64,000 bases of DNA from a virus (lineage: Duplodnaviria > Caudoviricetes): IMG/VR virus record IMGVR_UViG_3300043821_000026, positions 74,503-138,502 of that record, one strand, 5' to 3'. Below are positions 21,166-57,034 of this stretch, piece by piece. The stretch's first letter is position 1. Each line of letters opens with the position of its first letter. The notes under the pieces were generated by a model, which saw only the letters and a program-made list of their open reading frames with translations, ran no database searches and was not told the DNA's origin. The position numbers and the translations under genes were made by a program.

Positions 21166-21657
21166 ATGAATGGAATCTATGCTTGGAAAAATATACAAAA
21201 CGGTAAAATGTATATTGGACAAACTAAGTATATTGTAGATAGACCTTATGACCATTTTAAATGTTCTACAAGTCATGGTCAAAAATTTGAGAACGCAATA
21301 AAAAAATATGGAAAAAAAAGTTTTAAATTAATAATTTTAGATAAAAATGTATCAAATTTAAACATTATGGAAAAGCATTATATAAGAGTATATAGCTCTT
21401 ATATTAATGGATATAATTCAACATTAGGAGGAAATGGTATATATCCTGATATTATTGAGTGTCCTCATAATATATTATGGAATTGTCGTTATACCCATAT
21501 AGTTAATAATACAAATTATAATAGAAAAAAAATGTTTAGATTATATTATGGTAATTATTATGTACCTATTGGATATTTTATAGACCCAATAACCACAGAT
21601 ATTATTGGAAAACTTATATCCAATTTTTGTGATTCCGATACCAATCAATATACTTGA
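21166..21657 (+). CDS. GIY-YIG endonuclease (homing-type)
   Basis: GIY...NGKMYIGQT, AIKKYG, GYNSTLGG; own promoter CCGAAAACTTTATAA; its stop codon lies in the adjacent mini-element. Confidence 0.88.
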   Translation: MNGIYAWKNIQNGKMYIGQTKYIVDRPYDHFKCSTSHGQKFENAIKKYGKKSFKLIILDKNVSNLNIMEKHYIRVYSSYINGYNSTLGGNGIYPDIIECPHNILWNCRYTHIVNNTNYNRKKMFRLYYGNYYVPIGYFIDPITTDIIGKLISNFCDSDTNQYT

Positions 21658-21757
21658 ACTACCACCACTTATAGAAGTGGTGGATTCCTAACTTCGAGCT
21701 GAAAGGCAATCCCCGTCGTCCCAACGGTTCAGAATGTTTATTGCTGCATAAAACTGA
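21654..21757 (-). mobile_element. IS200/IS605-derived mini-element (tnpB 3' tip plus right end, i.e. omega-RNA scaffold), copy 1
   Basis: Encodes AAINILNRWDDGDCL (TnpB C-terminus-like), then GAATCCACCACTT-CTAT-AAGTGGTGG-TAGTTCAA; 103/104 identical to 28246-28349. Confidence 0.82.
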
Positions 21758-22527
21758 AAATAAAATTATCAAAAAAAGTTCTATATTCATGTTAATACCA
21801 TATCATTATCCTTAAACAATTCTAAAATATACATATCATTGTACTCAAATACTCTAGAAGAGATGGATGAATTATATAACATATATTGTTTATATTTATC
21901 TCGATTAATATATACCCAATATACTTTATTATCTTCTAAAATATAATAATCTTTATCTTCTATCATTCCTTTTTTATTTAAGAATAATATAATACTATCT
22001 CTACGCATTTTCTGATAACCTCAAACAGTCATTTTTATATTCACTAATATAAAATACTTTTTCTACTTTATTATCGTTATATAAAATAAAAGAATCTATA
22101 TCGTATTCATCATAAATTCCATATACTACACCATTTTTATATAACACAAATGACCCACCATCTAAATCTAAATCATCAAATTCCATATCCTTTACTCGAT
22201 TAGTAATTACATCATTAGTATCAGGATAATATGTTCCAACTTTAAAATAATCAAAAGGTGTTTCATAAATATCTTTAAATAAATCCTTTAAACTCATATC
22301 TTAAACCTCATAAATTAATCCTACTTTTTGAAGTATTAGATGTATATGAATTATAATCTTTAGACTTAAATTCTTTCAATCTTGCATCTAATAATTCGAT
22401 TAATGTTTGAATTTTTGTATCAACTCTTCCTTTTTCTATATATTGTTCTAATGCTTGATTATATATATCTATACGAAATTTTTTAACTTCACTTTCTGTC
22501 ATTGTATCTATAATATCCGACATCATA

Positions 22528-22929
22528 TTATTCACCTTTAAAAGTTCCATGTTCTTTTTCGTGACAATCCCGACATAAAACAGTAACATTATTTATATTA
22601 TATTTTTCTTCAGGATAAATTTTTTTACTTTTTAAATGATGTATACTTAAATCATCTGTAGCACCACATTTTTGACAATGACATTTACCATTAACGTTAT
22701 ATTTTGCATAAACACTACTATTAAAACTTTTTGTAACAATTGTTCCAGTTGTACCTATATCCTGTTCAGAACAATATTTAAAAACATCACTCATTTTTGA
22801 TATTCGTACACCATATTTCTGTGATAAAATTTTAACTAACTCATGATAAAGATAATTATATCCTGTATCAGGATTATCTGAATTAACAACATTCCATAAT
22901 TTTTCCTTATTCATTATATAATACTCCAT
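22528..22929 (-). CDS. HNH endonuclease
   Basis: CQKCG...IHHL...NVTVLCRDCH..EH. Confidence 0.85.
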   Translation of the reverse strand: MEYYIMNKEKLWNVVNSDNPDTGYNYLYHELVKILSQKYGVRISKMSDVFKYCSEQDIGTTGTIVTKSFNSSVYAKYNVNGKCHCQKCGATDDLSIHHLKSKKIYPEEKYNINNVTVLCRDCHEKEHGTFKGE

Positions 22930-25014
22930 TATATCACTTATCTAAAATAATCATTTAAAATTTTTACAAATTCTTCTTCTGTATATAATTGTCCTTTACT
23001 AGTTAATAATTGTATTTTATCATATATTTCTTCATAAGTAGCATTTTTTAATCCTGACATTTTGTTTAAATCTTTTAATAATTTTTGTCTATATTCATTA
23101 TTAGGTATTTTAAATAATAATTTTCTATTATCATCTGTTAAAAATACTCCAGCTGATGTTTTTATACTTCCAAATCTCATTTTTTCTAACCTCTATCGTT
23201 TAATATATCTTTTACACTTCTACAAAATATTTTTGCAGTAGTTTTTTCTTTATACTTTCCATTAGGAAACATTAATACTCGATAAACCTTAAGAGCTAAA
23301 TCTTCAAGCTCTTGTTTATTTTTTGTCTTATATACTGTCCCATTTCTCCAATAATATCTATTCATTCCTCTAAAATAAAATGGATGTGGGATAAATATTT
23401 TATCATTCATCGCTTAACACCTCATAAATCTTATCTTTAATTCTTTCTGCTTGTTTTCTGTTGCACAAGAATTTAACGCCATCAGATTCGCCAATTTTAA
23501 AATAACATTGAAAATTATCGTTTGATTTATAATCTTTTGTTGGATTTAAATTTGTATTTAAATATCTACCCATTTTTATCCTCTTCTGAATAATATTCAC
23601 AATCTGTACATTTAGTTTTTTCTATAGAGCCATATATTTGACAATATATAGAATACATACCTTCATCACAACTTTTATCACAACTCATACAATCACCTTT
23701 TATATATGTATATATTTAAATATATAAGTATTTATATATAAGTATTTTTTAAAATATATAAGGACATTTATCATAAGTGTATGGAAATGGTTTTTTGTTA
23801 TCAACATAAGGATGAGAGCAATATCCTGTATCTCCTGATTTATTAATATGGAGATATGGACAACTCCAACAATAATTCATCCATTGACGGTCTTTTAATT
23901 TATGTTTACTTATATATTTCTTACCCACTTAATCATCTTCTATAAAATAATTACAACTTAATTCTCTACCTCTTATATAATCATCAAATTTATCACAACG
24001 CATCATTTTAATTCCTGCAACACTATAAAATTTATCATTTTTTTTATAATAAATTACCTGTGAATATTTACAATTCATACAAACATTATTAGGAAGTATT
24101 TGTCTACTACTAAACACTACTCCTTCTCCACAATAGTATATACAATCATTACAATTATCGCTTCCAACTTCATAATTACATTCATTTAATTCATCAGCTA
24201 ATTCTAAAATACATTTTGTCATAATATCACTAGAATAAATATCTATCTTCTATTTGATTATTTTTTATAAAAAAAATACGAAATTTCGGAAGTGTTACTT
24301 TATTATTTAAAGCATAAAATTTTAAACAATTATGTATTCTATCAACAATAACTTTATTACAATCCCAAGTATCTGCTAAAATAGATAATTCAATATCTGC
24401 CCCATCAGATACAAATTGTGCGTCAATAAATCTATTTTGTATATAAGGGTGTTCTATTAAAAATTTCTTTAATTCATTAATAATTTCTGTATATTTTTTT
24501 TCCATAAAATACCTCCTATAGGTATATGTAATATTACATATACCCAATAAATGAAACAATTAATCCAATAACAATAAAGACTGGCATTAAGACCATTGTC
24601 ATCTCTGTTATAGATTTAATTTGCTTATCTTGTGCAAGAATATTAGCAATATATAAAATTCCTCCAACTATAAATAACATAAAACAAAGCTCATACATCT
24701 ATTTCACCTCCTCTAAATATGGACAATCTATATTATGTAAGTCTGCATCACGAATAATACTAAAAGCATTAGCATTAAAGATAGAATTTTCATAAACACA
24801 TTGTTCTTCGTGAATCATTTTATTATTGATATTAAAAGTAACTAATCTAAAATTTTTACATTGTTCACAATAATTCCAACGCATTTAATCACCTAATATA
24901 TCATCATTACATAGCCACCACTTATAAGATGGTTTATGTTCAACTTTACTACAATATTCACATCCATCAGGATATTCGCTACATTTAATACAATAATCAT
25001 TTTTTTCCATATTA

Positions 25015-25551
25015 TCACAACACTTTTTTTATAATATCTTGATTATTAATAATTTCATTTACTCTAGAAACTGCATCATTAATATTTCCATTATTTTTAA
25101 CAACATAATCACAAGTTATATGTTTATATTCATCATAATCATCTCGATTAGCTCTATCTTCATCAATATCGATTAAGTTTCTTTGTATCTCTATACAAAG
25201 TAAATTTAAATAATATTTTTTACTATATTCTCTTAAATCATATATTCCTTTTTTATCAACAACATATAAGTTACACTTAGTATTATCAGGAAGGAATGAA
25301 TTGATTGTTGTACAATATCTATAATCACCATATTGTGTTTTTGCTACAACATTATCTCCATCATATATAATATCCATCTTTTTTTTTGTTAAAAATAAGT
25401 GTCCCACTTCTGTGTCATATCTTTTTGGTCTATCAGTATAACTATTAACTAAATGATATACTTCAGGATTTTGACTTACTAATATTTTTGCGATAGTAGT
25501 TTTACCTACACCTGATTTTCCTTGAATTGCAACAATATTCAGTTTATTCAC
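25015..25551 (-). CDS. gmk: Guanylate kinase-like protein
   Basis: GKSGVGKTT, SYTDRPKR, YGDYRY, YVVDKKG, DYVVKN. Confidence 0.85.
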   Translation of the reverse strand: MNKLNIVAIQGKSGVGKTTIAKILVSQNPEVYHLVNSYTDRPKRYDTEVGHLFLTKKKMDIIYDGDNVVAKTQYGDYRYCTTINSFLPDNTKCNLYVVDKKGIYDLREYSKKYYLNLLCIEIQRNLIDIDEDRANRDDYDEYKHITCDYVVKNNGNINDAVSRVNEIINNQDIIKKVL

Positions 25552-27220
25552 CTCTTAAATAATCTTTTATAGATATATCCATACCTATACCATCAATTCT
25601 TTCATATATTTCATCAATTTTTTGATTTAAATCTTTTATTTGTTTTATTAAAGATATATTATATGACTTTAAGATACAATATTCATTTAATAATGATTTA
25701 AATATTTTATTTCGTTTATCAGAATCTTCAGCATAATCAGTAAAAAATTCTATTTTATCAGAATGAATTTTAACATCAGATTCTATAAATCCATTATTAG
25801 CTCTTTTTACATATTCTTCTGCCTCTTTTTGTGCCAATTGTCTTGTAAAATAATAGCCTTCAGAATAATCAAAAGTTATAACATTGATATCTCTTTCACC
25901 ATTATAATCTTCACGAAATACAGTCCATTCGTGAAAATCTTTATTCTCTTCTGTATAAAAAGCTCCCATTATACCATCTCCTTTAAATACTCTTCAGCAT
26001 TTTCTTTAGTATTATAAGTACTAATTAAATAATAAACATCTTCATTACTTAAATTTTGTTGCAATATTTTACATAAATTTAAATCAGAATCGCTATTTAA
26101 TAGTTCGTATTCAGACAAATCATATTGAAATATTACTAAACTATTTTTACACAAATCTCCTTCAACTACACATATAATAGAGTTCTGCTCTAGTATTACC
26201 TTTATTCCTACAAATATATTATAAATATTCCATATATCTTTTCGTAAATTATAATTATCTAAAATACATAAATACTTAATAAAGAATTTATTATCAACAT
26301 TGTAAAATAGTAATTTTCTATCAGGTTGTCTTTCAAAACAACAACTATTTGTGTATTTTCTTTCATTAAATTTACTACACCAATAAGCATTTGTAGGTTG
26401 TTTATTACTACTAATAAGCTCCTCAAAATAATTACAACCAATACATGAGCGCACTTTTCCTCCATTTAGATAATATAATATATCATCCAATAACAAAGAA
26501 ATTTCTTTTTGGGTTAATAATGCTTTTGTATCTATATCAGATAATAATACTGTTTTATTTACAAAATCTATTTTACATTTTATCCTATCAGATATTTTAA
26601 AATTCATTTTCTACCTCTTTCAAATAATGCACACCATATTCTTGTTGTAATAGGAAAAATATCTTTATGGTCGTCGCAATATATATATTCCTTATTATAA
26701 TAATGTGAATGTTTACAATCTTCACAGGTATCTGTGTCTTTCATTTCTTCTTTTGGTGTTTTAAATCCTATCATATTAAATACCATTGATAAATAGCTAT
26801 CATACCACAAATAAAAATAAATGCAATAATAATATAAAAGATTAAAATCATTATATAGAAAAACATATCACTCATTTACATAACCTATTTTCTTTTCGAA
26901 TTTTGTATTTAACCTATCACATTCTTGTTTGATGATACTAAAAGCATCTAATTCGGAATAACAAGATTCAATATCATAATAAATAAGTATTGACTCTGTA
27001 TTATTATATAGTTCGTCACATAATGAAAATACACAATCTTTTCTATCATTTCGTATTTTAAAACGAGGCCATGTAGTAATTTGACCTATTTCACTTTCAT
27101 TTTCCTTTTCTAATTCTTTTTTCTTTTTATACTCTTCATCTTGTTTTTTCATAAAATCTTCTACATCAAAATCATGGTCTATTTCATCATAAGGATAGGG
27201 GAAGTTAATTTCATCCTGCC

Positions 27221-27697
27221 CTATTGCTCTGTTGCTTTTATCTCGTAATTCCATTCAAAATCCTCCATATTCATTTCTTTTAATATATCATCAATAATAC
27301 TCATTAATTGAGATTTATTTTCTGCTTCAATATCTAATACAGTAGATAATCGTACTGAATATTTACGTGTAGGTATTGGTGTATTGATAAAATCCCATAA
27401 AGTATCTGGATTAACGTTATTATTAATATCATATTTTTGATGATATTCTGTATGACATTTATGACATAATGTAATACCACTATCAATATTTAATCTATAC
27501 TCTTCAAAGTTTTCATATGGAAACATATGATGAGCTTCAGGCCTAGAAGTGGACCCACATTTTTGACAAGTGTGATTATCTCGTGCTATAACTGATTGTC
27601 TAAAAAAGGTCATATAATCACTATTTCTTAAAGTTCTTTTGTTATTTTTACATAACTGATTAAATTTTTTTACTTTTTTTGGAACAGCAGGGGACAT
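27221..27697 (-). CDS. HNH endonuclease
   Basis: RDNHTCQKCG...EAHH...GITLCHKCH..YH. Confidence 0.88.
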   Translation of the reverse strand: MSPAVPKKVKKFNQLCKNNKRTLRNSDYMTFFRQSVIARDNHTCQKCGSTSRPEAHHMFPYENFEEYRLNIDSGITLCHKCHTEYHQKYDINNNVNPDTLWDFINTPIPTRKYSVRLSTVLDIEAENKSQLMSIIDDILKEMNMEDFEWNYEIKATEQ

Positions 27698-27922
27698 TTA
27701 GTCATCCCCTGTTTCCTTATCTATTGTTTTGTTAAATTGTCTAACGGTATAAACAGAATATACTAATAATATCCATGTAATTATAGACAAAATAAATGTT
27801 CCAATTACTGCAACATCTGTTGCAAAATGTCCAATCATATTAATCACTCCTTTAATCTGTAATTAATTATTTGAAAAAAGTAGTATATAAAGGTTGTTAT
27901 TACTATTAATAAAAAAAGTATG

Positions 27923-27952
27923 AAAAAAAAGCCGTACCTATCGGCACGACTT
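27923..27952 (-). terminator. Hairpin plus U-tract terminator
   Basis: AAGTCGTGCC-GATA-GGTACGGCTT followed by a T run. Confidence 0.65.
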
Positions 27953-28041
27953 AAAGGTAGCGATTGAATGGTTAATGAGGTATAACCCTCTAATAACCTC
28001 ATGTTTTCATATATATTTTGAAGTATAAAAGAATGTATTTT

Positions 28042-28443
28042 TTAATATGTTTTAATTTTATGCAAAGTAGAGTTAATTAAATCAATGCTATCTTTTACAT
28101 CTTCATTTATATGAAAGCTATCATCGATTATATGAATAGTAAAATAGTCTTCAAAATTCCCATCAACATAGGAATTTTTTTCCCAAATGTTTCTGCACCT
28201 ATCATTGATTTTTTGTTTTAATTTTGAAGTTGGTTTTACATTTGTTTGAACTACCACCACTTATAGAAGTGGTGGATTCCTAACTTCGAGCTGAAAGGCA
28301 ATCCCCGTCGTCCCAACGGTTCAGAATGTTTATTGCTGCGTAAAACTGATAATTTCATCACTTGTTAAAATACCCCACATTGTAAAATGGTTTTTTTTAA
28401 TTGTTTGAATTATCAATCTATTTAAACTATCATTACTAATCAT
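28042..28443 (-). pseudogene. 99-aa hypothetical gene interrupted by mini-element copy 2
   Basis: GGAGTG RBS plus MISNDSLNRL...SDEII and TNVKPTSKL...KTY* are in the same frame; removing 28246-28347 (102 nt) restores one ORF. Confidence 0.7.
28246..28349 (-). mobile_element. IS200/IS605-derived mini-element (omega-RNA scaffold), copy 2
   Basis: Same 104-bp sequence as 21654-21757 with different flanks and no target-site duplication. Confidence 0.82.
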
Positions 28444-48500: not shown

Positions 48501-48774
48501 TCATAAAACTATCTTCAATTTCAGAGTTAATATTTTTAATATCAACATCATTGAGGGTTGCATAATAAACTCCCATTACTCCTTGTATTTCATCTTTAGG
48601 TTCATGTAAGGTTATTATATCGTTTTTAACACTTAATAATTCATCAACTAAATCTTTTCTGAAATTATTTCTCCAATTAAACATAATTGAATTTAAATGT
48701 GTACTGTTGATAATGATTTCATCATTAATTACATCATTTATTTCAAATTCTTCAAATATCATAATATCACTCCT

Positions 48775-49257
48775 TTAATAAAATAATTCAAGGTTGTGCA
48801 TAATTCCATCGAAAATTATATCATTAGCATTTTGCATTTTACTAATTTCCATATTATATATTTCTATATATTTATTACCATCTATTTTAAATACGTAGAA
48901 AGTCATATTTTTTTCATTAATGATATATAACCATTCAATATCACAATGTACGGAATTATCAATACCATATCCTAAAAAGTCATTTAATTCTTTAATATCT
49001 TTCCTATTGGTATCCATAATGTAACTTAAAAACCATGCACTTAAATATCTAACACTAAAAATTCTATTTTTTGCTCCTTCGGTTTCAAAAAACTCTTTAA
49101 TAAGTTTTCCAACTACTGTTGGGTATCCATCACTATGTTTATAAATGTTACAATATGTTTGTTTGCATAATGTTTTTACATTTAATCCAATTCTTTTATT
49201 TCTTACTCCTTGTTCGTTAATATCTCTTGTCCATAATATTTGACTTCTAGTACTCAT
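48775..49257 (-). CDS. Conserved phage-type hypothetical protein
   Basis: MSTRS...IY.H.DGYP...DIEWLY pattern. Confidence 0.6.
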   Translation of the reverse strand: MSTRSQILWTRDINEQGVRNKRIGLNVKTLCKQTYCNIYKHSDGYPTVVGKLIKEFFETEGAKNRIFSVRYLSAWFLSYIMDTNRKDIKELNDFLGYGIDNSVHCDIEWLYIINEKNMTFYVFKIDGNKYIEIYNMEISKMQNANDIIFDGIMHNLELFY

Positions 49258-49555
49258 ATTTACACCTCTATTTTTAATATACAATATCCATTCCAACTTT
49301 CATTAATTAAGAAAGAAATTACTTCAGTATCTTCTACACTCCATTCATTATTTGATATATCCAATAAACTATCATGACTTATAAAGATATTACCCCCACC
49401 ATCAGAGTCTATTTGAGGACTGCCATATTTAAATAGTTGTATTCCTAATTTTTCAGATGTAATAATATCTTCATGTCTAATATAGATTGTTAGTTTTGTA
49501 TAGTCATCAAATACTTCATTGTTATGTATGGTTACTAGTTTAAAATTCATTTTAT

Positions 49556-49855
49556 TTACTCCAATATTTTATTTACTTCAGATAATAAGGCTTGGGTTAT
49601 TATATATTTTTTAGGTATCTTAGTTTCTGAAGCTATTTTATTTAATTTTGTTTTAGTTTCTGCACTTAAATAAAATCCTATTCGATTTATTCCAACATTT
49701 CTAGTATTATAAATACTTAATTTGTTATTAAAAACATCTTCAAGACCTTTAGTTAATATTTGACTTTGATTTAAGTTTGTTACTTCAATTGCTCTTATTA
49801 GTTTATACATTTGTTCTGTACTTAATTCTGTATCTACTATCATTTTATCCTCCAT
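49556..49855 (-). CDS. Tandem ribbon-helix-helix DNA-binding protein
   Basis: IGFYLSAETKTKLNKIASETKIPKKYIITQAL. Confidence 0.65.
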   Translation of the reverse strand: MEDKMIVDTELSTEQMYKLIRAIEVTNLNQSQILTKGLEDVFNNKLSIYNTRNVGINRIGFYLSAETKTKLNKIASETKIPKKYIITQALLSEVNKILE

Positions 49856-50528
49856 TTAATTAAACAATATAATTCCGAATACAATATATATTAATACTAT
49901 AGTTCCTACTTCAAATAACATTTTCCCACCTCCTCCGTTTCTGTATAAATAAATTTATCATTTTTTAAATATAATAAATATTTATAATTTTGTTTTTGTA
50001 ATTTTTTTTTAATTAATTTTTTATCACCTTCATTAATAATAATGTTATTATATACTTCTATTGACTTAATAATGTTATTGGAATTAATAATACGGCTTCG
50101 TAACTCCACCACGACTATATATTTCAATACCGATACCTGCATATCCACAGATATTACAACATATATCTCTTATATCTCCGTTATCTTCTCTAACTACTCT
50201 TATATTACTCATTCCACAATTAGGACAATATCCATCTTCTTCTTCAAATCTAACCATTTAAATCACCTAAATTTCGAAAATAACAAATTCATCTTCATTA
50301 TCAGGATAAAGACTTGCTTTATTTTCTTCTTTTTTTATTTTATTAATATCATTAAATCCTTCTGCTACAATATTAAAAATATAGCTAATTAAATCTTCTA
50401 TTATCATATTTCACCTATAAAATCATATTCCTAAATAATCTATTTTATATATTTTAGGAATATTATATTTTTTATTAATTTTTTCATTTTTTTCTATTTC
50501 ATCTAAACATAAAAAAATATCTTCATTA

Positions 50529-53781: not shown

Positions 53782-53995
53782 ATATTGTGATGTCTTTCCT
53801 GCCGTTAAGGGCATGACCATCTCCCACGCAGATACCGAAGTACCCTATGAGAGTTGCATAGGTAAGCAAGGACTGTAAAAACAGTTTGCCGTTTAATAAG
53901 ACAATTATGCTCCAATTTGTTAATTTGGAGTGAGTTATCTCTTCCAACTCATTCTTAAGGTGTTTCAACCAGTATAGGAGTTACCTCCCTACAAT
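53782..53995 (-). ncRNA. Highly structured leader or ncRNA
   Basis: GC-richer; stems TGAGTT/AACTCA, CTCCAA/TTGGAG, AAACGG/CTGTTT, CCTATG/CATAGG, GGTAC-TTCG-GTATC, TGCC/GGCA, GATG/CATC. Confidence 0.6.
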
Positions 53996-54232
53996 ATACA
54001 TATTTGTTCAAACCACTATATAAAGGTATCGATAACCTTCAAGTGGTTTAACATATGAATTGTGGGGACTTGCCTCCTACAATATACATATTTGTTTCAC
54101 CCCATATATAAAGGTATCGATACCAAATTAATGATAACAAATATTTTTTTCTTAAGGTGTTTCAACCATCTTTGGGAGTTGCCCCCCTCCGATATATACA
54201 TATTTGTTGCACCCCCTATATAAAGGTGTCGG
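53953..54232 (-). promoter_or_regulatory. Three tandem promoter units (BRE-TATA plus conserved initial transcribed region)
   Basis: CGAYACCTTTATATA-N8/9-AACAAATATGTATAT three times, each followed by a GNRA-capped hairpin. Confidence 0.8.
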
Positions 54233-54703
54233 TGCAATATCATATGCTTAATAATATATAATTTTTTTTGAAATTTTATAAAAATTCCTATTACCACTAT
54301 CATAATGGTAGTAGTAATAGCAACTTTTATTAATTTTTTTCATTAAATTTTATTAATTTTTTATCAAAATTTTTATTCTCTATATAGAATATTTTTATAT
54401 TATATTTTCTATTCTATCTTTAGGAATATTATAATAAAATTTTTCTATATATATAATATAATATCTCTAATAAGTATTAATATCTCTATTATTAACTCCT
54501 ATATAGATAATTTATATATATCTCTTATTATATACTCTTATATACAAATTACTCTTACTATACATCTCTATATAGTATATTATTTATTTAAATTTGCTTT
54601 TATTTTTTTAAAGAAATTTAGTGGCTCTATTACATAAATAGCTACCTCTATGGCTTTCTTTAGCTAATTAAACAGCAAATTGGCTTCTAATTTCATAATT
54701 ACC

Positions 54704-55519: not shown

Positions 55520-55580
55520 GAAGCTTTTTAAGAGCTTCTATAACCCCATTAGGGGTTATAGAAGACCTTATTGGTCTTCT
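55520..55580 (-). repeat. Three-hairpin intergenic element (GAAG/CTTC core)
   Basis: AGAAGACC-AATAA-GGTCTTCT-ATAACCCC-TAAT-GGGGTTAT-AGAAGCTCTT-AAAAAGCTTC. Confidence 0.85.
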
Positions 55581-55874
55581 TTTGCTTCTCTTAAGAACTT
55601 ATCTCTTGTTCTTGCAAGATACCCTAGACAATCTTCATCTAGTAATAATAGATGAGTTATCATATTGTCCATAAAATGCTTATGGGAGCAGTAAAAGCCT
55701 CCATTGGACATAACCCAGTATATTGCTCCGTTTTGGAGCAATATAAAGGCTTCTAGAAGTCCTCTATGGTTTTTACCCTTTTTAAATGTTATTATTTCAT
55801 TAATAACATCATCAATTTCTTCTCCTGCTTCCTGATAGTCTATTTTTGTTATTTTATTCATTTTTTTTACTCCT

Positions 55875-55936
55875 CAAGCTCTTATAGAGCTTGTACAACC
55901 CCATTAGGGGTTGTACAAGACCTATTTGGTCTTGTA
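55875..55936 (-). repeat. Three-hairpin intergenic element (CAAG/CTTG core)
   Basis: TACAAGACC-AAATA-GGTCTTGT-ACAACCCC-TAAT-GGGGTTGT-ACAAGCTCT-ATA-AGAGCTTG. Confidence 0.85.
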
Positions 55937-56054
55937 GTAGCTTCTAAGAGCATTATTTAGCTCTTTTTCACTACATATTAAGTCTTGTTTATCATCTCCT
56001 TTCAAAAAAGAAAGAAAAAGATAAAATAAATTATATACTTTCATAAAATCACTT

Positions 56055-56951
56055 CTATGATAAAAGTTCATATGTGGTTTTATTATGTTTTACGGAACAT
56101 AATAAACAATCTACGCCACATACGACATTTTTTTCACTTTTATAGCTACAAGGACACACTAATGCACCTTTCGGAGCTTTTGAGATGTCTTTTATAGCTA
56201 AAAATCTATTAGTACCTCTTATTTCTACTTTATCAGTAGAAATATTGATAACTAAATACTCACATAATTCCCAAGAGAGCTTTAAATCAGTTCTATGGGT
56301 GTATATGTAAGTATTTATGCCTAATACTTGCAATAATCCAAAAGCGACGCTTTCTGCAAAGCTAATGTCGCTTATACCTCGTACATCTCCGTCTACGCAG
56401 AAACGGAATAAGCTACAAGAGTATTTACTCTTATTACTCATTCCATTGACATACCAAACGAACATAAAGGCGTTTAATATGTCAATCTTTAAGCCCTGTC
56501 TTGTATGACAGTTTTCACCTTTATGACGGGTGTTTTCTGCCTTACAAGAATAGCAGTGGTCTGCGATTTCACAAAGACCAAGTTTCTTGGAGCTACAACG
56601 AGTACTGGACTCAAAATTAGTCCAATACACGGTATTAGCCAATTTTAGATTACCTTTTTTTATGAAGTCTTCTAATAAAAAGTGTTTCATAAAGCTATAT
56701 AATCTAGATTTGCGAACTTTTACGGAAACACCGTCATAATAGCCGAGTATTTCCATAATGACTAGACTTCGTGGTTCTAGCCACTCAACAGGGACATCTC
56801 CTGCCCCTGTTTTGATAAATTCTACTTGTTCATGATTTATAAAATCATGAACAAATATGTTTTTTTTATTTTTTGGAACAATCTTACGATATATCCCAAG
56901 CTCAAAACTTTGTTTTTCCAAAGTTTCTATGTTATATTTGCCCTTAGGCAA
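56055..56951 (-). CDS. Phage Gp88-like Cys-rich protein
   Basis: C......C.....CY..KAE, FRFCVDGD, YIYT, NIS, VCP...C..C..C. Confidence 0.65.
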   Translation of the reverse strand: MPKGKYNIETLEKQSFELGIYRKIVPKNKKNIFVHDFINHEQVEFIKTGAGDVPVEWLEPRSLVIMEILGYYDGVSVKVRKSRLYSFMKHFLLEDFIKKGNLKLANTVYWTNFESSTRCSSKKLGLCEIADHCYSCKAENTRHKGENCHTRQGLKIDILNAFMFVWYVNGMSNKSKYSCSLFRFCVDGDVRGISDISFAESVAFGLLQVLGINTYIYTHRTDLKLSWELCEYLVINISTDKVEIRGTNRFLAIKDISKAPKGALVCPCSYKSEKNVVCGVDCLLCSVKHNKTTYELLS

Positions 56952-56975
56952 AATATCACTTCCTTTTTTTTATTT

Positions 56976-57034
56976 GAAGCTTTTTAAGAGCTTCTACAAC
57001 CCCAAAGGGTTGTAGAAGACCTTATTGGTCTTCT
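56976..57034 (-). repeat. Three-hairpin intergenic element (GAAG/CTTC core)
   Basis: AGAAGACC-AATAA-GGTCTTCT-ACAACCC-TTTG-GGGTTGT-AGAAGCTCTT-AAAAAGCTTC. Confidence 0.85.

Follow-up and report, generated by a model that had tools for sequence, protein, structure and literature searches.

We analysed the last 64 kb of the 138.5-kb virus record IMGVR_UViG_3300043821_000026 (the whole record is called G000 here; coordinates without a prefix refer to this 64-kb window), which carries two almost identical short repeats resembling the right end of an IS200/IS605 insertion sequence (IS). With a probability of roughly two in three, these repeats, copy 1 and copy 2 at sites 1 and 2, have lost their left end and are immobile remnants of a tnpA-tnpB family of IS200/IS605 elements that is active in Methanobrevibacter and its viruses; they would have arisen by way of a palindrome-associated transposable element (PATE), deletion of its left end, and recombination. 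Loci of related viruses and host genomes are cited by L-numbers, and database proteins by P-numbers.

The two repeats differ at one of 104 positions (21654-21757 versus 28246-28349, mismatch at 21748/28340), bearing out the 103/104 identity given in a first-pass annotation of the window. On the minus strand both encode a TnpB tail, AAINILNRWDDGDCLSARS and a stop codon, followed by a right end running from GAAT through a hairpin to TTCAA, as that annotation had described; the subterminal hairpin has its GAAT guide and TCAA cleavage site. Neither copy holds protein-coding genes of its own, and the annotation was also right that no left-end hairpin, tnpA or tnpB lies next to either; a left-end motif was found neither at the copies nor anywhere in G000. 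BLAST of the repeat against the rest of the virus, as the annotation had proposed, located a third copy outside the window, where G000:50162-50260 forms the 3' end of an element with tnpA and tnpB. This match establishes that the repeats combine the 3' end of tnpB with the right end of an IS200/IS605 element, as had been claimed, and supplies the cognate TnpA/TnpB pair in the same virus. Element DNA proper amounts to only 94 nt per copy:

G000:48646-50260: parent IS200/IS605 element, outside the window, with tnpA at 48678-49082 and tnpB at 49087-50226
28246..28339, minus strand: copy 2, a right-end remnant (last 19 tnpB codons plus right end), 94/94 identical to G000:50167-50260, its left end apparently deleted flush with a TTTAC target
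28340..28349, minus strand: site-2 target flank TCAGTTTTAC, viral DNA ending in the motif TTTAC; it precedes a canonical left end in L046, and the parent has different bases here
21654..21747, minus strand: copy 1, a right-end remnant like copy 2, matching it and the parent at 94/94 positions
21748..21757, minus strand: copy 1 left junction, 9/10 like the site-2 flank and 7/10 like the ancestral local allele over the same positions

The 10 nt 5' of the 94-nt unit differ from the parent and, at site 2, are target flank, as shown by the sister virus L046. Together with the parent match this flank shortens the element from the 102-104 nt first proposed, and we rejected the 102-nt unit. Removing 102 nt does yield the 99-aa frame reported earlier, but the test is not diagnostic, because any in-frame removal opens the frame (99 and 105 nt give 100 and 98 aa); deleting the true 94 nt of copy 2 from G000 causes a frameshift and a 37-aa product. 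Exact scans of the IMG/VR, GTDB and JGI collections revealed no further copies of the element, a degenerate scan found two diverged relatives, and a scan of phage GenBank found none; Rfam matched nothing but tRNAs. Multi-copy matches in host genome G081 were rejected as mini-elements, being contig ends of collapsed repeats.

The proteins of the parent match PF01797, PF07282, PF01385, NF033573 (TnpA) and NF040570 (TnpB); TnpA has the HIH motif and the GYF tyrosine, and TnpB has three RuvC acidic motifs (D/E/D; GFDLN, IVIEN and DRDIN) that align with those of ISDra2 TnpB. In Methanobrevibacter genomes and viruses, the family left end consists of a C, 12-13 nt, and then GAATAC, a hairpin and GATGAATT. 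The motif before this left end at 20 distinct junctions was TTTAT in 14/20, TTTAC in 2/20 and another NTTAT in 4/20, the C after the motif being the first base of the left end, and empty alleles (L049 for the parent; L044-L046 against a full IS in L047) place the cut 3' of TTAT, with no duplication. Judged from these junctions, the target motif is TTTAT, with TTTAC tolerated, and TTTAT is also the predicted transposon-adjacent motif (TAM); the background frequency of TTTAY is 0.8% of positions. The flanks TTATC and TTTTC singled out in the first-pass annotation lie several bases upstream of the true junctions of the copies. TTATC is TTAT plus the first left-end base, the empty site in L049 confirms TTTAT, and the TTWTC-like TAM predicted earlier was rejected given the motif at the family junctions.

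Like other IS200/IS605 elements (NF033573 TnpA, NF040570 TnpB and an IS608/ISDra2-type right end with GAAT guide and TCAA site), the G000 parent has tnpA, tnpB, a right-end hairpin and a 5' target motif, without duplication (L049 and L047 empty sites). Unlike a complete element, it lacks a left end. The deletion is flush with TTTAT and extends through an internal TTAA of the intact element, beyond which the sequence continues; in the copies, nothing but the final 94 nt is left. For the parent (loci L001, L048 and L049) an empty allele with perfect TAM and guide exists in L049. The parent may thus be excision-dead but homing-competent.

The origin of copy 2 is best seen in L046, a sister virus 99.9% identical to G000 (5 substitutions in 16.7 kb). 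At site 2 L046 carries, in order, the same remnant, a diverged left-flank repeat, and a complete 143-nt element with left and right ends, a PATE, directly after TCAGTTTTAC. In this PATE the left end meets the tnpB tail in a TGCA microhomology, at the start of the remnant. Because this left end directly follows TCAGTTTTAC, TCAGTTTTAC is target DNA and the remnant is 94 nt; most simply, on sequence grounds, copy 2 would be this PATE minus its left end. The two right ends at site 2 of L046 are joined to two other TTAY sites, positions that in G000 follow TTTAC and GTTAT; this shows local recombination and makes site 2 a hotspot of insertion with adjacent deletion. The tandem itself (L046:16769-17060; remnant, 44-46-nt flank repeat and complete PATE) is small and array-like, its two right ends having different guide-position sequences.

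In G000, copy 2 follows TTTAC and splits a small gene:

28042..28443, minus strand: small hypothetical gene split by copy 2, its 3' part 87% identical to P0170

A precise empty allele of site 2 was not found among relatives. L041, the only homologue, has one extra base at the insertion point; it was rejected as an exact empty allele, having 9 nt against 8 in G000 and diverging in its 5' part. This nearest relative at site 2 differs in TAM and seed, and L046 has the region deleted.

Copy 1, which follows TTTAT, probably has a different history. An ancestral site-1 allele is common to L044, L045, L046 and L047, and copy 1 is in none of them; the search for empty sites in related viruses suggested by the first-pass annotation thus yielded four at site 1 and no precise one at site 2. 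G000 has 102 nt (21653-21754) in place of 54 nt of the L046 allele, and left of copy 1 it departs from the ancestral allele at two positions, both as in the site-2 flank. Copy 1 is therefore no clean scarless insertion. Its left junction is likely a microhomology crossover, and the alleles are best read as a result of recombination: the site-2 remnant would recently have been copied to site 1 through short homology, rather than inserted there by TnpA. We rejected a simple local tandem duplication as the origin of the two copies. Copy 1 adjoins a gene on the other strand:

21166..21657, plus strand: GIY-YIG endonuclease gene beside copy 1 (Pfam PF01541)

The end of copy 1 supplies the TGA stop of this gene (21655-21657) and alters only its last residue, QYT against QYK in the empty allele (P0171 versus P0292). 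The C-terminal QYT recurs in the database proteins P0291 and P0293, and we therefore rejected the idea that copy 1 is an assembly artefact.

We suggest that a 143-nt PATE, its left end fused to the tnpB tail at TGCA as in the sister strain, inserted 3' of TTTAC at site 2. Its left end would then have been deleted flush with the target, leaving copy 2, and very recent short-homology recombination may have carried the remnant, with a few site-2 flank bases, into site 1, replacing 54 nt between convergent genes. In the Geobacillus system scrambling of the left end abolishes excision (10.1101/2023.03.14.532601), which argues against mobility of both copies; neither has the two ends of a PATE, which the 143-nt element of L046 does. 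The earlier proposal of a minimal unit mobilised as such in trans is not sustained, as the left end is missing and copy 1, with its site-2 flank bases, replaces local DNA and is no scarless independent insertion. Host genomes likewise contain remnants without a left end (L057, L066, L070, L097), which supports the view of the copies as relics.

Several observations weigh against this history. Neither copy differs from the parent end (100% identity); both keep the full predicted scaffold for a guide RNA (omegaRNA) and are not visibly decayed, which may only mean recency. Both are also located 3' of TTTAY, the position expected of a TnpA insertion. We did not observe the intermediate, a PATE at site 2 with the right flank of G000 next to it, and the L046 tandem may be a chimeric assembly that joins alleles of two strains. 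Since G000 lacks any left-end sequence, the junction between flank and left end in L046 is no misjoin of G000-like reads.

We modelled the omegaRNA as five helices on the architecture of ISDra2 omegaRNA (PMC10097598) and tested the model on an alignment of 12 family ends. In this alignment 96% of cells were paired. Both partners had changed in six pairs; five of these belong to the right-end hairpin, a structure that TnpA binding would suffice to conserve. The pseudoknot was 100% paired but nearly invariant, arguing only weakly for the pseudoknot itself. All 25 proposed pairs fall within the last 74 nt of the element, and the scaffold is therefore predicted to be intact, and complete, in both copies:

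28246..28319, minus strand: predicted omegaRNA scaffold of copy 2, with stem 1 and its pseudoknot loop, stems 2/3, right-end hairpin and 3' GUUCA
21654..21727, minus strand: predicted omegaRNA scaffold of copy 1, identical in sequence to that of copy 2

The single-sequence fold was not significant (z -1.4). Both copies are oriented like nearly all neighbouring genes, on the minus strand, making read-through transcription plausible. A sigma-70 promoter scan remained at shuffle level, the sigma-70 model being unsuited to an archaeal virus; TATA-like boxes were absent upstream of copy 1, and the only ones upstream of copy 2 plausibly belong to the split small gene. Read-through RNA of both copies could be loaded by the virus's own TnpB.

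The sequences in guide position, which the first-pass annotation had quoted correctly, are local flanks:

28230..28245, minus strand: guide position of copy 2, the start of the 3' part of the split small gene; a precise empty allele would carry the TAM TTTAC
21638..21653, minus strand: guide position of copy 1, antisense to the 3' end of the GIY-YIG gene

That annotation had suggested that these guides could lead to cutting of empty alleles. For copy 1 this is not supported by any of the four empty site-1 alleles, in which the guide-like stretch is preceded by GTCAC instead of TTTAT or TTTAC and has a mismatch at position 1; for copy 2 no precise empty allele was found, and searches of the virus, host genomes and IMG/VR found no homologous target, which is absence of evidence only. 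Nor did the proposed search of host and other viruses give more than near-control or non-homologous matches. Matches to TAM plus guide in 103 Methanobrevibacter genomes were at or near control (1 versus 1; 3 versus 1), every one with a mismatch, and two in IMG/VR (L098 and L099) lie in non-homologous contigs and were taken as chance. Among the virus guides examined, only that of the parent has a perfect TAM-flanked target (L049). At most, copy 2 might passively promote homing of itself into an empty allele with TTTAC, of which none was found.

Other histories were considered. Copy 1 might be the ruin of a former full IS at site 1, later converted with the site-2 remnant as template: L047 has such an IS, left end intact and 99.7% identical to the G000 parent, inside the very 54-nt stretch that G000 lost. 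Such a sequence of events requires that 9 nt more were lost on the right side, and L046, the nearest strain, carries no insertion at this site; we rate it at about one chance in five, and it is a variant of the remnant history with no different function. Quite unlikely, in our view, is a right-end-only mini-transposon, in which TnpA would cut a target-like motif 5' of the unit with a left-end guide provided in trans and insert 94 nt 3' of TTTAY, making a new omegaRNA each time. The 5' breakpoint is identical in both copies, with TTAAT just before it in the parent; TTTAY precedes both against its low background; and TnpA, intact in this virus, finds cleavage sites by DNA-guide pairing rather than contiguity (PMC3201880). 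Yet copy 1 is a 54-nt replacement with site-2-like flank bases, only two copies exist, with no more in exact scans of IMG/VR or JGI, G000 has no left end to supply the guide, and excision does not tolerate left-end scrambling (10.1101/2023.03.14.532601). A domesticated set of guides, which the virus would turn on the DNA of its host or of competitors, is largely refuted and very improbable: two different guide-position sequences and an intact TnpB would suit it, but the guides are simply local flanks, their host-genome and IMG/VR matches are those described above, no dedicated promoter was seen, and the copies are not conserved in the 99.9%-identical strain, where copy 1 is missing and site 2 rearranged.

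A further alternative is that copy 2, like the left-end-less parent, is unexcisable and that its omegaRNA directs viral TnpB to empty alleles of co-infecting relatives, spreading by break repair, with copy 1 a by-product. We consider this unlikely. The predicted scaffold is complete, TnpB has its RuvC D/E/D motifs, the TAM is kept exactly at the left junction, the parent has its perfect empty allele in L049, and cut-and-copy homing is established for IS200/IS605 (10.1101/2023.03.14.532601); against this, a precise site-2 empty allele was not found (L041 differs in TAM and seed, L046 lost the region), and TTTAC is a minority target that may be a poor TAM. A source for such elements is suggested by the ability of TnpA to pick alternative boundaries resembling the transposon-encoded motif (TEM) (Meers et al., 10.1101/2023.03.14.532601), a route to left-end-less copies. 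Right-end-only remnants occur in Methanobrevibacter genomes at L057, L066, L069/L070, L076 and L097. The G000 parent and L097 have an exact TTTAT and then resume right after the internal TTAA of the intact element; L070, also flush with TTTAT, is similar, and L057 and L066 are not TAM-flush. Breakpoints expected of mis-excision are thus matched exactly by the parent and L097 and to within one base by copy 2, since in the copies the breakpoint lies one base beyond the TTAA of tnpB, an inexact fit. With TTTAY at so few positions the TAM-flush pattern is unlikely to be chance, although the sample was small and not drawn blind. TnpA mis-excision, from the left end to an internal TCAA-like TTAA, might then generate TAM-flush, homing-only selfish elements, down to 94 nt, that make an omegaRNA against their own empty allele, borrow TnpB and spread between co-infecting methanogen viruses; we think the chance of this slim.

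Both copies are related to known systems. PATEs of Geobacillus stearothermophilus (10.1101/2023.03.14.532601) are likewise protein-less, with an omegaRNA-coding right end and TnpA and TnpB in trans, and L046, with its 143-nt precursor, and L015, with a similar element, provide examples of this kind; in contrast, both copies lack a left end and are hence not expected to be TnpA substrates. As PATEs encoding omegaRNAs used in trans have been described (Meers et al., 10.1101/2023.03.14.532601), the concept is already known. The predicted scaffold resembles ISDra2 omegaRNA, or reRNA (PMC10097598), in its stem 1 loop pairing with a 3' GUUCA (pseudoknot), central stem, right-end hairpin and overlap with the tnpB tail, but is ~74 nt against 116 nt, with no triple-helix equivalent identified and a structure deduced by comparison. 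The decaying IS200/IS605 of Halanaerobium hydrogeniformans (PMC7290912) likewise combine full, truncated and ends-only copies that recombine; here the setting is an archaeal virus and the truncation is flush with the target motif.

As relics the copies are of little import, because omegaRNA-bearing mini-elements and truncated IS200/IS605 copies are already known. The locus does offer a strain series in a methanogen virus (empty, full IS, PATE and left-end-less remnant) and a compact natural predicted scaffold of ~74 nt with a predicted TTTAT TAM. It also bears on whether a left-end-less transposon persists as a pure TnpB homing element, a route to a homing endonuclease or a stand-alone guide; the residual interest lies in this homing-only state after TAM-flush loss of the left end, a doubtful prospect.

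A pseudomurein-binding repeat protein and the Methanobrevibacter relatives of the viral TnpB suggest a Methanobacteriales host. Three marker proteins found no close relatives of the virus in IMG/VR.

Other family members show further rearrangements. In L012 (6232-6313 and 9449-9479) the right-end hairpin is now a perfect 38-nt palindrome. It adjoins a 31-nt duplicate of the left flank of the full IS, which lies at a distance of 3.2 kb; here too, flank was copied along with element DNA. A tnpB element in L017 (6146-6250) lies between tRNA-like sequences and has lost half of its left-end hairpin; its right-end tip TAGTTCAA recurs twice more downstream, with short unique sequences between. The L015 element (L015:2131-2360, minus strand) is a classical mini-element with left and right ends, a related family member in another methanogen virus, and the corresponding site in L016 holds a different right end. 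In yet another virus, a related IS (L004:2843-4175) breaks off within tnpA; it lacks a left end, and its junction shows no TAM.

Elsewhere in the window, 55521-57032 and 53988-54234 hold three dispersed 58-nt palindromic repeats and three 47-nt direct repeats, all non-coding, a possible origin or regulatory region, and five tRNA genes cluster on the minus strand at 1047-1666. A 504-aa open reading frame in the structural region (G000:46239-47753) contains an exact internal duplication of ~135 aa, either a real expansion or an assembly artefact. In the segment L046:1-2386 (G000 ~85.7-88 kb), what is probably an archaeal virus has separate PHP and catalytic genes for a DNA polymerase III alpha of bacterial type.

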